Of a DNA stretch of 64,000 nt, positions 17,361 through 25,695 are shown one piece after another; position 1 is the stretch's first letter, and every line of letters starts with the position of its first letter. This DNA comes from a virus. A program made the position numbers and the translations under genes. The stretch is from the UHGV virus genome UHGV-1366123, one strand, 5' to 3'. The notes beneath the pieces are model-generated. The model searched no databases and was not told the origin of the DNA. It worked only from the letters and a program-made list of their open reading frames with translations.

Positions 17361-17386
17361 AGGATACCTCTTCTGATTAAAGAGAG

Positions 17387-17470
17387 GTACTTTCCTTGAG
17401 CTTGGAGGTACTTGGAGGTACTTTCACCCCACCGATAATTCTCGAATGCAAGGAAAGTACCTCTCTTTAA
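17387..17470. repeat. MITE-like hairpin element, 22-bp perfect TIRs TTAAAGAGAGGTACTTTCCTTG / CAAGGAAAGTACCTCTCTTTAA
   Basis: seen in sequence; family recurs at 10 or more loci. Confidence 0.7.
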
Positions 17471-17527
17471 TTCGACAAACCAGAATAACTTCGAAGGTTG
17501 ATCTAAAGACAATCCCGATATACAGAA

Positions 17528-17783: not shown

Positions 17784-17871
17784 AGACGTAGTGAGAGGTT
17801 TCGCTCCTCTGAATATCTTCATCAAGAAGCACTACGTTTGATAAAAAGGTGGCGAGTTGTCCATACTCTTC

Positions 17872-17944
17872 TCAGTCTGGTAGGATTCGAACCTACATCA
17901 TCTAAGAACCACCTTATAGGAATTTCCGATTATTCTACAGACTG
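17872..17944 (-). tRNA. tRNA-like sequence with canonical acceptor, D and T arms but a non-canonical anticodon arm (probable pseudo-tRNA)
   Basis: T arm GTAGG-TTCGAAT-CCTAC, acceptor CAGTCTG/CAGACTG, D stem GAAT/ATTC; no 5-bp stem with 7-nt loop can be drawn in the anticodon region. Confidence 0.4.
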
Positions 17945-18310
17945 AACAACAAACGATAATGAAGATTCAAAATGCTGAATATCTGCAAATCGGAAACTAT
18001 GATTGATTCATCTTTTAGACAGCTATGGACAATACCGAATGGGGTATCAAACCAGTAACTTGAAGATTTTTATAGATTGCTGTAAGTCCATAATCTAAAA
18101 GACGTTTTTTCTATCTTTTTCGTCGAAATCTTTACTGCAGACGTTATCTATGAGCCAATTATGAAGATTCTGTTTGCTGTGTGTCTACAGATCCCGACAT
18201 TAAGAATTCTTTAAAAGAACGCTTTGTGAATGATGACTTCCCAGTGGACTACGTAGTTTTAGGAGCAATTGCATAGTAATTTGCTGTGAATCCAATAGAT
18301 CATCATTTTG

Positions 18311-18853: not shown

Positions 18854-19321
18854 TTATGTCCGTACAATATAAGCATCATAACCATACTGCAAACCATCAA
18901 AATAAGAGCTTATGTATTCATAACAACCTCGTAATGTTAGATATGCGTAATAGTCTGATCTTGAATTGTAGTTGCCATTTTGATAGCTATAACAAGCATT
19001 GGAGAAGTTGCTTATAAGCCGTTCCAATTTGGCAATGGTTTCATCAACCTCTTCAGACGACTTCCAACGTAAGTGACTTAGTTTCACTCCTATAATGAAA
19101 TCATCGATTTCTCGTTGATTTCTTTTTATCGTGAGCTTAAACTCATAGGGGCTGTCATAAGGATCGTCTTTGATATGTTCACGTGTCTTTGTTGTTGTTA
19201 TTTCAACTTCAAACATCGGTTCTCCATCGTAATATATCGTCTGTACAGATTGGAATATCTTGATGTTTGTCTTGTACACACCTCTATCAAGACCTTCATA
19301 AAACTCTGTAGGGCTAATCAT
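18854..19321 (-). CDS. hypothetical protein
   Basis: ORF only; Tyr-rich C-terminus. Confidence 0.45.
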   Translation of the reverse strand: MISPTEFYEGLDRGVYKTNIKIFQSVQTIYYDGEPMFEVEITTTKTREHIKDDPYDSPYEFKLTIKRNQREIDDFIIGVKLSHLRWKSSEEVDETIAKLERLISNFSNACYSYQNGNYNSRSDYYAYLTLRGCYEYISSYFDGLQYGYDAYIVRT

Positions 19322-19340
19322 TGATCTCTGTTTGATCAGT

Positions 19341-20294
19341 TCATTTAGTCGTAGTTTGTTTCTTCTTGATGATCATTCTAAAATAAGTCTGCTCGCCATT
19401 CACAGACAAATATTTCCCGTCGTTTCCCCTTCTGGATGTCACAATCTCAAATTGTTGAGGATTGAATTTATACAAGAATGTTATCGGAACCCCCATGCAA
19501 CCATTGTAATCTCGTGGTATATCCTTGACCCTATCGACATTTATACCATCATAATTGTCGTATTTGGGATATTCATGTTCGTGTCCATAGTAGTTTTTTG
19601 TAAGCGGAATATCTTCATGTCGCATAGAGTGGTTCAAATTCGTAAACCACAGACAATTATTGGTGGGCGTGATCATATTACCAGATTCGTCCATCCATGT
19701 TTTTTTCATGTAGGGTTCATAATGGGCTGGTATGATAAACCCAGAAAATTCGTTCCCACGATTTACACCAAGCCATGCCTTACCATCTTGAACGGATTTG
19801 AAGATTTCTTTGTTGGTGATAGAATTGATATTCCCAATAATGAGAAAGAGCTTATCGTATCTGATCAGTTGTGTCATATATTCACGGAACAACGAAAATG
19901 GTGGATTTGTAACAACTATGTCAGATTGTTCCAGCAAATCGATACTTTCTTGACTACGAAAGTCGCCATCACCATTGAAGTAAACAACATCAGCTGTCTT
20001 TGGATCTGTATCGACGAGTTCTGTCCCTGTGTATTCAAAGAAAAAACCACGACTGTTTTCCTTATAACAAGATGCAATCACCTTCCGAAGTCCCAATTCT
20101 TTGAAATTGGAAACGAAGTATTTGAAAAAGTTACTCGTCAGAGGATCATCACAATTGCAATACACAACTTTCCCTTTAAAATGGCTTTCATAATGTCGCA
20201 ATTCTCTTTCGATATCAATAAGTTGCGTATAGAACTCGTCGTTCTTTTGCTTTCTAGCATTACGAAGTAACTTGCTGGTTGTTGCCCTTGCCAT
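19341..20294 (-). CDS. N6-adenine DNA methyltransferase, EcoRI-methylase family (orphan)
   Basis: N-terminus MARATTSKLL..KNDEFYTQ..VVYCNCDDP..SNFFKYF..LGL.K.IASCY closely parallels M.EcoRI; motif IV IVVTNPPF present; no restriction enzyme gene adjacent. Confidence 0.8.
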   Translation of the reverse strand: MARATTSKLLRNARKQKNDEFYTQLIDIERELRHYESHFKGKVVYCNCDDPLTSNFFKYFVSNFKELGLRKVIASCYKENSRGFFFEYTGTELVDTDPKTADVVYFNGDGDFRSQESIDLLEQSDIVVTNPPFSLFREYMTQLIRYDKLFLIIGNINSITNKEIFKSVQDGKAWLGVNRGNEFSGFIIPAHYEPYMKKTWMDESGNMITPTNNCLWFTNLNHSMRHEDIPLTKNYYGHEHEYPKYDNYDGINVDRVKDIPRDYNGCMGVPITFLYKFNPQQFEIVTSRRGNDGKYLSVNGEQTYFRMIIKKKQTTTK

Positions 20295-20419
20295 ATTTCC
20301 GTCTTTTAATATAAATCTTCAGAATAGAGAATCGTCTTATCTTTTACATCTTCTATTTGATCAGCTTCTTTAGCTATCTTACAAACTTCATACCTATCAA
20401 CAAATATCACTTTAGAAGT

Positions 20420-20595
20420 GTAGAAGCCTTATCGTATGTGAAAAATCTGCGTTTTATCCAGTTCTCACTTCTTGTTTCAACCTGCCATTACTTTTTAGGA
20501 ACACGAGGTTCGGTCATCCATAAGAGGGCAGTCCGCAAGCGTAAATTCGGTGCTACGAACACCTACTCGATTTTTTATATGTTAGACAGTTTGAA
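20420..20595 (-). ncRNA. Putative TnpB omega-RNA (reRNA) scaffold region at and beyond the 3' end of tnpB
   Basis: Inferred from IS200/IS605 biology; locally GC-rich, structured segment (GGAACACGAGGTTCGGTCATCC...GGTGCTACGAACACC) immediately 3' of the tnpB stop. Confidence 0.35.
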
Positions 20596-21724
20596 GTTTT
20601 CTTTGTCCTTCAATGAGAATGTTCTTCGAAGCGTTTATATCTCTGTCGTGATATTCACCACATTCGGGACAAGTCCAAAACCTATCACCGAGTTTCAAGT
20701 CTTTCTTCTTGTAACCACAACATAAACAAGTCTTTGAACTTGGATAGAACCTATTGATAAGAACAACTCGCTTATCATTCATAAGAGCCTTATATTGCAA
20801 TATCGACTTGAACCGATAAAATCCAGACTCTTGGATAGCATTCGCAAGATAACGATTTCCAAGCATCCCTTTAATATTCAAGTCTTCCATGAACACCACG
20901 TCGTATGATTTGAGGATCTCGTTCACAACTGAGTGGATGTAGTTCTCTTTCTTGTTCGTTATATTCGCAATCACTTTTGCAAGTCTGATTCTCTGTTTGT
21001 TCCTATTGTTTGAACCTTTGACCTTTCTGGATAGTTGACGATGAAGTCTTGTGATCTTCTTTTCCTCCTTCTTGAAGAAGTGTTTGTTTTCAAACACAAA
21101 TCCATCAGAGGTTATGACGAAATCTTTCACACCAAGATCAATACCGACTTGCTTGTTGGTCTTTTCAAACTTTACAAATTCTGCTTCGGGAATGTCGATA
21201 AGGATTGATAAGAAGAAATTCCCACTCTTGGTTTTCGAGAGAGTTGCACTTCTTATGTTATCTTTGTACTTCTGTAAGCGTTTGTGATACAAGTCAGAAC
21301 AACGGAATCTGAGTTTTTGAAGAGAAGTGATTAGTGTTATATGTTTCGTTTCGAAAGTGTTCCTCTTTGAAATAGCATTACGAGGAAACAATGCTGATTG
21401 TTTGTCTTTCTTTGATTTAAACTTTGGAAAGCCTTTATGATGATTGAAGAAGTTTTGATAAGCACCGACCATCTGTTTGATTGCTTGGTTCATCACCTTT
21501 GTGTTCTGTTCTCTCAACCAAGCATATTGTTCATCTTTCAACAATGATCCGTGGAAATATTTCGATAGATCGCTTTCGCTTAGGTTTGTCTTGTCCGTTT
21601 CATAAGCCTTTTGTTTTCTATCGAGCATGTGATTATAGACAAAACGATAAGCACCAAGAACCTTGTTGAGTTCTTGTTCCTGCGCTTTGTTTGGATATAA
21701 CCTTATTTTAATCGCTCTAAACAT
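20582..21724 (-). mobile_element. tnpB: TnpB (IS200/IS605 OrfB-family RNA-guided nuclease), intact, no tnpA present
   Basis: N-terminal IRLYPNKAQ..YRFVYNH; RuvC-I GIDLGVKD, RuvC-II FMEDLNIKGM, zinc finger CLCCG...CPECG, RuvC-III DRDINASKNIL; all catalytic residues present. Confidence 0.8.
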
Positions 21725-21743
21725 GCCTATGATTGATTATCCA

Positions 21744-21968
21744 TTACAGATCTTTTTCTTCTGCTAATATCCTATCGAATTCCAATCTCAGACAGCGAAG
21801 ATAGCCGTTCATGTATTCATACTTAGTCTGCTGGAAGAACTTCTCATCTGGTGTCAACTTCTCAAACTCTAAAGATTGGATGAAATCGAGTTGCTTCAAA
21901 GTGACTTCTTTGAACCTTTCATAGCTCTTTAAAGCTTTCCGTCTCCTCTGTCCAAATTCTTCAAACAT
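21744..21968 (-). CDS. hypothetical protein
   Basis: ORF only. Confidence 0.4.
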   Translation of the reverse strand: MFEEFGQRRRKALKSYERFKEVTLKQLDFIQSLEFEKLTPDEKFFQQTKYEYMNGYLRCLRLEFDRILAEEKDL

Positions 21969-22212: not shown

Positions 22213-22279
22213 TGCTTCGTGAAGGATTCGAACCTTCATCAATTCCGTCGAATCGCTCTGGCCATTGAGCTAACGAAGC
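22213..22279 (-). tRNA. Short (67-nt) tRNA-like element: perfect acceptor, D and T arms, anticodon arm collapsed (pseudo-tRNA)
   Basis: Acceptor GCTTCGT/ACGAAGC, D arm GCTC-AATGGCCA-GAGC, T arm GAAGG-TTCGAAT-CCTTC; only 17 nt between D and T arms. Confidence 0.35.
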
Positions 22280-23370: not shown

Positions 23371-23446
23371 CCAAGAAGACCCCCCCCCGATGAATTGATT
23401 CTTTTTTATCAAAAAGAATCAATTCATCGGGGGGGGGTCTTCTTGG
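23371..23446. repeat. 76-bp perfect palindrome: 36-bp stem (CCAAGAAGA-C9-GATGAATTGATTCTTTTT) around a TATC loop, with C9/G9 homopolymer tracts
   Basis: seen in sequence; every position pairs. Confidence 0.9.
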
Positions 23447-23464
23447 AGATTATCGTTTATGGGT

Positions 23465-23520
23465 GAAGATTGAAGATTGAAGATTGAAGATTGAAGATTG
23501 AAGATTGAAGATTGGCTTCC
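23465..23520. repeat. Microsatellite (GAAGATT)x8
   Basis: seen in sequence. Confidence 0.95.
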
Positions 23521-23573
23521 GCATATTGAAGAAATGTGTTAAAGTGTATTATCAACTGATACGCTTTAAAGGA

Positions 23574-23657
23574 AGGTATTTTCCTTGCGCTCTGAGAGGT
23601 TCAAGAATATGAAAATAGCGGAGAATAGATCAGAGCGCAAGGAAAGTACCAAGGAAA
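23574..23657. repeat. MITE-like hairpin element copy (TIRs GGAAGGTATTTTCCTTGCGCTCTGA / TCAGAGCGCAAGGAAAGTACC; loop carries GAAAATAGCGGAG core)
   Basis: seen in sequence. Confidence 0.7.
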
Positions 23658-24060
23658 GCCAAGGAGACATATCCTTTGGAATGATGGGTTTCTGTCGGGA
23701 GACAATGACTATTTCCAAGGATTATGAGAAGACTATGACAATAATGGAGGACAATGGAAGATTATCAATGACTTGAAAGACAATGGTTGGAAAATGACTG
23801 ATTTTTAGAGGATTATCAGAGGACTATCTTTTGGAAAATGGTTGGTGATTATCGAATTAAAGGAAGGTACTTTCCTTGTCCTCGAAGCTATTCGAGAATA
23901 TGAAAATAGCGGAGACCATACTCGAGTTCAAGGAAAGTACCAAGGAAATCCAAGGAGACATATTTTCGAGGATTATGGTCTCTGTGGCTAATGGGAGGAA
24001 TATCTTGGAAAGAGAATATCAGTTTAAAGGTGTTAAAAGGTGTTAATCTGTTCGGGGATT
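23640..24060. repeat. Left iteron array: GACAATG / TGACAAT / GACTATGACAAT repeats (reverse complement of the right arrays)
   Basis: seen in sequence. Confidence 0.7.
23867..23941. repeat. MITE-like hairpin element copy
   Basis: TTAAAGGAAGGTACTTTCCTTG ... CAAGGAAAGTACC; loop GAGAATATGAAAATAGCGGAGACCATACTCGAG. Confidence 0.7.
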
Positions 24061-24839: not shown

Positions 24840-25017
24840 ACTTTTTCTATTGTCTTTGATAATCTTTTCACGATCCTCTATTGTCTTGGTGATTCTTTGA
24901 TGATCAGTCATTGTCTTTGATTATGGTTGATTGTCTTCCATAGTCTTCTGATAATCACTGACAATAGTCATTGTCTTCCGACAATCATACCACCATTCAA
25001 CAGAATACCTCTTCTGA
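24840..25017. repeat. Right iteron array 1: (A/C)(G)TCATTGTCTT(T/C) and GATTGTCTT repeats
   Basis: seen in sequence; three segmental copies follow. Confidence 0.75.
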
Positions 25018-25112
25018 TTACAGGAAGGTACTTTCCTTGCGCTCTGATCCATTTTCCGCTATTTCTATCCCACCGAATGTCTTCGAGGACAAGGAAAGTA
25101 CCTTCCTTTAAT
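25018..25112. repeat. MITE-like hairpin element copy with its loop inverted relative to the 23574 and 23867 copies
   Basis: TTACAGGAAGGTACTTTCCTTGCGCTCTGA ... TTCCGCTATTTC ... CAAGGAAAGTACCTTCCTTTAA. Confidence 0.7.
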
Positions 25113-25159
25113 TCAACCATTCTCAACCATTTTCTGGTAGATCATCTTCATAATCATTC

Positions 25160-25356
25160 AAAGAACCAGTTGTGAAGACGGTCATCATTGTCTTTCCATA
25201 ATCCTTTGATGGTCAGTCATTGTCTTTGATTGTTTTCCATAGTCAGTCATTGTCTTTGATTATGGTCGATTGTCTTTCCATAGTCTTCTCATAATCCTTC
25301 GAAATAGTCATTGTCTCCCGACAGAAACCCATAATCCTCGAGAATATGTCTCCTGA
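25160..25356. repeat. Right iteron array 2 (GTCATTGTCTTTGAT / GATTGTCTTTCCATAGTC units)
   Basis: seen in sequence. Confidence 0.75.
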
Positions 25357-25450
25357 TTACAGGAAGGTACTTTCCTTGAACTCGAGTATGGTCTCCGCTA
25401 TTTTCATATTCTTGAATATCTCAGAGCGCAAGGAAAGTACCTCGTCTTAA
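25357..25450. repeat. MITE-like hairpin element copy; loop is the inverted form of the 23867 copy
   Basis: loop AACTCGAGTATGGTCTCCGCTATTTTCATATTCT is the reverse complement of the 23867-copy loop. Confidence 0.7.
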
Positions 25451-25454
25451 TTAA

Positions 25455-25695
25455 TGAATCAGAACTATTGTCTCTTCATAGTCTTCTGATAATACTTCAA
25501 TAATCGTCCATTGTCTTTCAATAATCAGCCATTGTCTTCCGATTATGGTCGATTGTCTTTGATGATTGTTGATTGTCTTTGATGATTGTTGATTGTCTTC
25601 CATAATCAGTCATTATCTTGGATAGTCTTCCATAATCCTTCGAAATGGTCTATTGTCTTCGGATGATGACCCATAGTCCCCGAGAATACCTCTCC
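25455..25695. repeat. Right iteron array 3, including GATGATTGTTGATTGTCTTT x2
   Basis: seen in sequence. Confidence 0.75.

Follow-up and report, generated by a model that had tools for sequence, protein, structure and literature searches.

TnpB, the ancestor of Cas12, is an RNA-guided nuclease whose natural role is to cut the empty site so that the element is copied back. Here, we describe a tnpB gene and its predicted omega-RNA on the minus strand of a 64,000-nucleotide (nt) stretch of UHGV-1366123, an uncultured phage of ~150 kb; this whole stretch is called the window. Cut-and-copy by TnpB has been shown in bacteria and plasmids (PMC10055086, PMC10690162, and PMC11870625), whereas for phages it has only been proposed (PMC13565253). 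In multicopy plasmids, IS605 TnpB acts as a gene drive, in which an intact insertion sequence (IS) spreads independently of TnpA by cleavage of the empty site (PMC11870625). The IS607 IStron of C. botulinum encodes CboTnpB (Zedaveinyte et al.), which has the target-adjacent motif (TAM) TGGG and a scaffold ending in UCGG (PMC10690162). Nuclease-dead, TnpB-derived RNA-guided repressors, some of them prophage-encoded, are known as TldR (PMC10705468). Unlike the plasmid gene drive, the system considered here is a cassette without ends, and its spread would take place among phage genomes.

The element in the window is very probably an IS607-derived TnpB/omega-RNA cassette that has no transposon ends and sits in place of most of a phage gene, here called orfX. 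To judge from its sequence, it has kept all that is needed for RNA-guided DNA cutting and has lost all that is needed for transposition. Its parts and surroundings are listed below; related contigs and loci are designated by L numbers, and alleles with and without the cassette are called filled and empty.

20582..21724, minus strand: tnpB, 380 amino acids (aa), an RNA-guided RuvC nuclease by its domains, catalytic triad, and zinc finger.
20566..20581, minus strand: A-rich linker from the tnpB stop codon to the scaffold, delimited by the alignment of 74 3' regions and by open reading frame (ORF) lengths.
20431..20565, minus strand: predicted omega-RNA scaffold, 135 nt, 3' terminus ...UUCACAUACGAU, doubling as the transposon right end (RE); placed by covariation and a covariance model (CM) match.
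20411..20430, minus strand: predicted guide, the first ~16-20 nt past the scaffold, AAGGCTTCTACACTTCTAAA, reading into the orfX remnant.
20306..20430, minus strand: orfX 3' remnant, with the last 40 codons (20428-20306; GFYTSK...YSEDLY*) and the stop codon at 20306-20308.
21725..21740, minus strand: the 16 nt ATAATCAATCATAGGC immediately 5' of the tnpB ATG, phage-derived and not a transposon left end.
21741..21744, minus strand: ATGG, the remaining orfX start, overlapping the TAA stop of a 74-aa upstream ORF, as in the empty alleles of L081 and L103.
19341..20294, minus strand: EcoRI-like adenine methyltransferase gene (PF13651, E 1.7e-116), a neighbor only.

The 380-aa product carries HTH_OrfB_IS605 (PF12323), OrfB_IS605 (PF01385), and Cas12f1-like_TNB (PF07282) in this order, all above their gathering cutoffs, and scores 314.7 bits against the NCBIfam model guided_TnpB NF040570 (cutoff, 100). 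Its closest solved structures are an AI-designed TnpB-like nuclease and ISDra2 TnpB (8EXA/8BF8; E 3e-55). The first-pass annotation had read an intact set of RuvC catalytic residues and a CxxC..CxxC zinc finger and had taken the enzyme to be active rather than decayed. The alignment with ISDra2 bears this out. D196 (GIDLG), E280 (FMEDLN), and D362 (DRDINAS), encoded on the minus strand at 21137-21139, 20885-20887, and 20639-20641, align with D191, E278, and D361 of ISDra2; both CxxC pairs are present (CLCCG, residues 333-336; CPECG, residues 352-355), and the catalytic residues are retained in orthologs. The protein therefore looks active. ISDra2 TnpB (PDB 8EXA/8BF8/8H1J) resembles it in domain order, RuvC DED triad, and zinc finger over 369 aligned residues, but its element is of the IS200/IS605 family, with hairpin ends, a Y1 TnpA, and the TAM TTGAT, and its omega-RNA is unrelated in sequence, with no Rfam or CM cross-match.

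At least nine public contigs encode an identical TnpB protein, with the same neighbors at the one place shown. Its relatives comprise 78 IMG/VR loci at 52-93% identity, often several per contig, and 425 INPHARED records match it. Because 185,579 species genomes yielded 2 matches to TnpB relatives versus these 78 loci in IMG/VR, the lineage looks phage-restricted. Large phage genomes carry three to five relatives per contig, as in L040/L044/L066/L078 (one 133-kb contig) and L014/L020/L024 (one 222-kb contig), and L049:1718-7743 holds three tandem copies inside 6 kb. Lak megaphage records are also among the multicopy carriers.

The predicted RNA was delimited by comparison. In 74 aligned 3' regions, a conserved block starts ~17 nt past the stop codon and finishes in ...TTTCAYATACG(G/A/T)N, mostly with a final T; directly 3' of TACG(G/A/T)N, all relatives diverge. 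DNA similarity to nearly all relatives runs from the tnpB ATG (21724) to an end point between 20469 and 20431, and similarity from 21740, 16 nt 5' of the ATG, was found solely in the syntenic L001. The linker at 20566..20581 is variable, and in some relatives the ORF extends into the scaffold. Covariation was analyzed in 56 nonidentical relatives, using RNAalifold and one guide-proximal helix added by hand (GUGAAA/UUUCAY), for 27 pairs in total. Pairing was possible in 98.9% of cells, with compensatory changes on both sides in 17 of the 27 pairs; none of 500 shuffles and no slid register approached this. Covariance model R1 (Infernal) matched the window at the scaffold alone (134.3 bits, E 7e-25). 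It is from comparative covariation only that we conclude that a predicted omega-RNA scaffold is present at 20565-20431 on the minus strand, close to the interval 20420-20590 at the 3' end of tnpB where it had been expected from the single sequence.

The same expectation had described this interval as conspicuously GC-rich and structured, and this did not hold. Scaffold GC content is 0.437 compared with 0.402 on average in the window, and 19% of all 135-nt segments equal or exceed the scaffold. The fold of the lone sequence is no more stable than shuffles (minimum free energy z = +0.26) and is therefore not usable as evidence for the RNA. The Rfam covariance models gave no omega-RNA family match, at the gathering threshold or at E <= 10, RAGATH-18 included. 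ISFba1-type IS607 TnpB, which works with a RAGATH-18-derived RNA (PMC11061315), is alike in its IS607 association, its length of ~380-390 aa, its G-rich TAM (AGGAG/GAGGG), and its 3' right-end RNA (reRNA), but the scaffold in the window is of another family. The first-pass annotation had derived the guide from DNA between about 20300 and 20420. The predicted guide starts at 20430, however, not at or below 20420, and the DNA that it reads is not the upstream region of the methylase gene but the 3' remnant of the disrupted orfX (20306-20430). The guide matches nothing else in the window at up to 3 mismatches.

The protein alone would suggest a different ancestry from the one that we assign to the cassette. 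It scores 340 bits on the IS200/IS605-type TnpB model NF038281, under the 425 cutoff of that model, and 167 bits on the IS607_TnpB model. In the nearest complete relatives (L014, L029, L037, L071, and L042/L045), however, an IS607 serine transposase lies directly 5' of tnpB. This transposase has 198 aa with a MerR-HTH plus a resolvase domain, and that of L014 scores 195 bits against NF033518 'IS607 family transposase' (cutoff, 110); L039 and L047 retain only transposase fragments. Full-length relatives have a left end reading ...GGG|T(T/A)AT(T/G)AAC(A/T)GTT(A/C)A(A/T)TAAAA..., ~90-320 nt upstream of the first gene and preceded by GGG in 14 of 17 different contexts, and their RE finishes in ...ACGG(T). 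Since the nearest complete relatives carry an IS607 TnpA and the RE parallels that of the C. botulinum IStron, the cassette is best assigned to the IS607 lineage, not to IS605/IS1341, despite the higher protein score on the IS200/IS605-type model.

The first-pass annotation had pointed to the IS605/IS1341 family with its Y1 TnpA, an attribution at odds with the serine transposase of the relatives. An IS200/IS605 element, including an IS1341-type solo tnpB, was considered by seeking left-end and right-end hairpins and a fixed TAM; it was rejected, with no left end found and a transposase of the IS607 type in the relatives. No IS607 TnpA and no left-end motif was found anywhere in the window; for the latter, a loose regular expression gave >1200 chance matches, so a stricter one was used. 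Nor was any transposase present among the five neighboring ORFs (70 aa, 74 aa, NADAR, methylase, and 155 aa), in line with the earlier statement that none lies nearby, the window beyond these ORFs not having been scanned for Y1 TnpA. The RE core dinucleotide has changed from GG to GA (ACGAT, not ACGGT), and the terminal RE hairpin has lost 10 nt with the RNA closing helix still preserved. Thus, the window copy is not a complete IS. In L026 (reverse strand, 480-680), a left-end-like motif, TATTTTAACTATAAC...TAAATTAAAG, persists without the tnpB that L020 has there, which suggests deletion derivatives that retain the left end alone.

The CboTnpB IStron is similar in several respects. It is linked to a serine TnpA, as in the relatives of the window copy, its omega-RNA overlaps the right end, its scaffold end (...CGG(N)) is one position off a G-rich target motif, and a cut-and-copy role has been proposed for it. 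In contrast, the window copy has no TnpA, left end, or group I intron, its RE core is mutated, it resides in a virulent-type phage genome, and its protein is nearer the IS200/IS605-type model than the IS607_TnpB model. A group I/II intron or IStron was also considered for the window and rejected: there is no intron, and 149 nt of orfX are gone, so splicing would be unable to restore the gene.

Comparison with related phages revealed what the cassette replaced. The search for empty-site alleles that had been suggested found them, and the flanks do represent an insertion or replacement relative to related phages. An intact 92-aa orfX (MERILCSAIKR...YSEDLY), which matches phrog_839 of unknown function, occupies the same position in L079/L102, L080, L081, L103, L104, L105, and L106. 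This locus is conserved and polymorphic for the cassette, with five filled contigs (the window, L013, L065, L001, and L107; at least four distinct genomes) and eight empty ones, whose seven distinct alleles carry a site matching the guide; L079 and L102 look like one phage from two collections. Both kinds of allele were found within the same assembly series. Of orfX, whose first ~185 nt are replaced by the cassette, the window retains just the ATGG start (21744-21741) and the last 40 codons. Relative to L103, the closest empty allele, the cassette stands in place of 149 nt; the left flanks are ~98% identical, and the right flanks are identical from ~70 nt onward. An in-frame TAA at the RE junction means that the orfX remnant is not translated from upstream. 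One empty allele (L080:3990-4268) has an in-frame TGA at codon 18, and orfX may thus be decaying or recoded in some TnpB-less genomes too.

The tnpB ATG occupies exactly the position of the orfX ATG in related genomes, and the 16 nt before it correspond to two stretches of L080-type genomes, the 3' end of the 70-aa upstream gene and the orfX ribosome-site region. Because tnpB is oriented like the flanking phage genes, it is probably expressed together with them. The window, L013, and L065 share the same right junction. In L001 (6291) and L107, the left junction is unchanged and the right end is again exact, but the point at which the cassette meets orfX lies 50 nt further upstream, so that the guide is different; this shift might stem from a recombinase that acts on the RE.

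Selection was analyzed in four same-locus tnpB copies (the window, L013, L065, and L001). All four contain the full-length ORF, and dN/dS is 0.11-0.17 at dS 0.25-0.58, as low as that of the NADAR gene, similar to that of the flanking phage genes, and below that of the methylase. The scaffold is 96.3%, 97.8%, and 91.2% identical to those of the same-locus orthologs, with changes that preserve pairing, whereas identity in the adjoining orfX remnant is 81% and 74%. These values indicate that the TnpB/omega-RNA module is under selection although it appears unable to transpose. Its maintenance by selection without transposition argues against an inert relic, in which an old, decaying insertion would look intact by chance. 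Degenerate transposon ends would fit such a relic, as would the premature stops in relatives elsewhere (L041, L049, L055, L056, and L074), but the four full-length orthologs under constraint and a scaffold far better conserved than the adjoining remnant make this explanation very improbable, and we disfavor it.

The best reading of the locus, to which we give about an even chance, is that the cassette serves as a transposase-independent RNA-guided nuclease that behaves like a homing endonuclease or cuts competitors. TnpB would bind the 135-nt scaffold (20565-20431), and the RNA would extend ~16-20 nt into the remaining orfX sequence, from 20430 downward. The complex would recognize and cut the same sequence in co-infecting relatives with an intact orfX, where the target is preceded by GAYC, and would be expected to spare the element's own copy, preceded by CGAT. 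UvsX-type recombination would then repair the break from the TnpB-bearing genome, and the cassette and a short flanking tract would be copied. The outcome would be an RNA-guided equivalent of the free-standing Seg/Mob homing endonucleases of T4 ("transposon non-restorative homing").

The T4-like free-standing enzymes (SegF, SegB, and Mob; intronless homing or localized marker exclusion) provide the nearest functional parallel. There as here, the nuclease gene lies between or inside conserved phage genes; the cassette is polymorphic among relatives, its flanks are mosaic, and the phage has UvsX-type recombination. SegB targets a tRNA gene region, as some relatives of the window TnpB do. The systems differ in that the target here would be recognized by a guide RNA instead of a protein and that self and non-self would be distinguished by the element's right end replacing the TAM.

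Homing is made plausible by the presence/absence polymorphism, by purifying selection without transposon ends, and by a near-perfect guide/target pair in a sister genome. The latter is formed by the L065 guide and the L079/L102 empty allele, which differ by 1 mismatch (position 14) in 30 nt adjoining GATC. The window guide has mismatches at positions 14 and 17 to L105 and at positions 5, 17, and 20 to L103. In addition, the right flank of the cassette in the window is a mosaic: its first 37 nt equal the filled L013, and from about nt 71 on, reaching into the methylase, it equals the empty L103, which shows recombination next to the cassette.

The TAM was examined in 13 independent filled/empty pairs among the relatives. 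A purine (R) was present at -4 in 12 of 13 pairs and at -3 in 11, G or T at -2 in 10, and C at -1 in 9 (P = 9e-5), with a pyrimidine at -1 in 12. The element's own RE always has C at -4 (CGGT/CGAT/CGTT). From this we infer that the TAM may be a loose RRKY motif, with GGGY as its best form, and that, like the C. botulinum element, the cassette would be protected from itself by a single position. The bases before the orfX target in empty alleles are GATC, GACC, TGTC, or GATG; GATC fits RRKY, whereas the L001-type CATC does not. A simple NGGG TAM was also considered and at first looked decisive against homing. This objection is softened by the RRKY-like motif of the 13 pairs and because the GGG may be element-derived. 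A pattern scan of IMG/VR for the empty site of L029 found nothing.

Several observations weigh against homing by the window cassette. Each close empty allele differs from its guide at 2-4 positions, seed position 5 or 8 being among them in several alleles, and a perfect match over 21 nt exists only in a distant orfX homolog, L094, where the target is preceded by GCTC. None of the empty orfX alleles has the GGG that full-length relatives show at their left junction, and this GGG may be part of the element instead of the target. At the L001-type junction, the context (CATC/CACC) resembles a TAM only poorly. Ordinary recombination could also have produced the mosaic flank; since homology is confined to a 126-nt stretch between the cassette and the methylase indel, the crossover was forced to lie there, and its location does not by itself prove a break made by a nuclease. 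Purifying selection would also be compatible with a function that benefits the phage.

Such a function would be the basis of domestication, in which TnpB is kept for the benefit of the phage, for example, by cutting the DNA of the host or of competitors, by TAM-independent cutting of single-stranded DNA, or by shaping downstream expression through processing of the operon transcript. The orthologous position, fixed without transposon ends across five or more contigs from no fewer than four distinct genomes, the dN/dS as low as that of core phage genes, the fusion of tnpB to host-gene translation signals, and an orfX target without a canonical TAM all agree with this. Yet the guide is not conserved: there are two junctions with two guides (the window type and the L001 type), and even between the window and L065, 4 of the 21 guide positions differ. 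Furthermore, the guide has no other match in the window, seven close relatives do without the cassette, which makes it dispensable, linkage to the methylase is absent, and the catalytic residues are intact, unlike those of the known domesticated TldR regulators. We therefore consider domestication unlikely. TldR (PMC10705468) is similar in being a transposase-less TnpB-derived module with an omega-like RNA, selected at a fixed phage locus, but it has lost the RuvC residues and has a conserved promoter-directed guide, whereas the window copy retains the triad and takes a variable guide from its flank. A TldR-type domesticated TnpB was ruled out on these grounds, the triad being intact and the guides differing between orthologs.

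Alternatively, the cassette might be a nonautonomous IS607-family element mobilized in trans by a serine TnpA of the same phage, a co-infecting phage, or the host, with TnpB in its usual retention role. Related phage contigs do contain full IS607 copies with TnpA, no copy deviates from the exact RE boundary, and the two orfX junctions 50 nt apart respect the RE end, a pattern that could result from site-specific recombination at the RE. Against this stand the missing left end, with just 16 nt of phage-derived sequence before the ATG, the RE core GA in place of GG, the terminal hairpin shortened by 10 nt, the lack of an IS607 TnpA in the window, and the occurrence of one copy per genome at one locus in this phage clade. 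Mobilization in trans is thus distinctly improbable, and homing by an RNA-guided nuclease is the reading that we prefer.

That reading can be extended to the whole lineage, although we regard the extension as rather doubtful. In this proposal, the IS607-derived TnpB/omega-RNA lineage in large phages would be transposase-independent and would spread and persist purely as RNA-guided, free-standing homing endonucleases, with the C at -4 of the RE masking the TAM and guides reset by flank rearrangements; the target duplications at L004, L034, and L043 would be footprints of nuclease-initiated one-sided repair. The window copy would then exemplify transposon non-restorative homing from one phage genome to another.

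In some relatives, the target matching the guide is directly duplicated around the element. The duplication is 11 nt and perfect in L034:1764-3216; ~29 nt and diverged in L004:4915-6340, where the upstream GGG is changed to GGT; and at least 77 nt at 87% in L043/L044:4610 and 6296, 391 nt upstream of the ATG. Such duplications might have been left behind by nuclease-initiated repair or by the carriage of a replacement gene end. Several relatives lie beside or within tRNA genes (L049:5056, L055:6305, and L060:6308 versus L074:4640-4800 and L010:6303). The guide of L049 equals the 5' half of a tRNA, and that of L055 equals a T-arm, with the terminal GGT of the RE completing GGTTCGAATCC.

The methylase gene was next to the cassette but proved separate from it. 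Together with an adjoining 155-aa ORF (18854-19321), it forms a variable indel cassette (18854-20294). This is missing from L013, L001/L107, L104, and L106, where the orfX stop abuts ~18848 (window numbering), and present in the window, L103, L079/L102, L080, and L081, as well as in L065 with reversed gene order. All four combinations of TnpB and methylase presence and absence exist in related genomes, so the link between the two genes implied by the first-pass annotation found no support. A regulatory TnpB-methylase link was ruled out, given that the two assort independently and the guide is orfX coding sequence.

The phage itself appears to be only distantly related to cultured phages. A near-identity DNA search of INPHARED phages gave no match, and the UvsX-like recombinase is ~33% identical to those of T4-like cyanophages. 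Other phage genes in the window include a head maturation protease, an SbcC-like nuclease subunit, and an NAD ligase, and there are seven tRNA matches. The tRNA-like gene at 17871-17945 scores 42.3 bits in Rfam and has an anomalous 2-nt anticodon in the ARAGORN call, and the tRNA at 22213-22279 was found by Rfam and missed by ARAGORN. A family of noncoding repeats of ~80-120 nt, direct and inverted, with 63-91% identity and the core AAGGAAAGTACC, occurs at 17361-17476, 23566-23978, and 25002-25456 and flanks the tRNA/small-gene region containing tnpB. At 23371-23446 and 23450-23525, a perfect 36-nt inverted repeat with a 4-nt loop and C9/G9 runs is followed by a (TGAAGAT)n tandem array, in a stretch with strong positive GC skew.

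The locus constitutes a compact natural test case for the role of TnpB in phages, as it combines a selected end-less cassette, defined filled and empty alleles, a near-perfect guide/target pair (L065 versus L079/L102), and T4-like recombination genes. If the cassette does bias inheritance in its own favor during mixed infections, homing by an RNA-guided nuclease can persist after transposition is lost. This would explain why solo TnpB genes are so common and multicopy in large phages, and a new 380-aa TnpB/omega-RNA pair, possibly with a relaxed TAM, would be gained.

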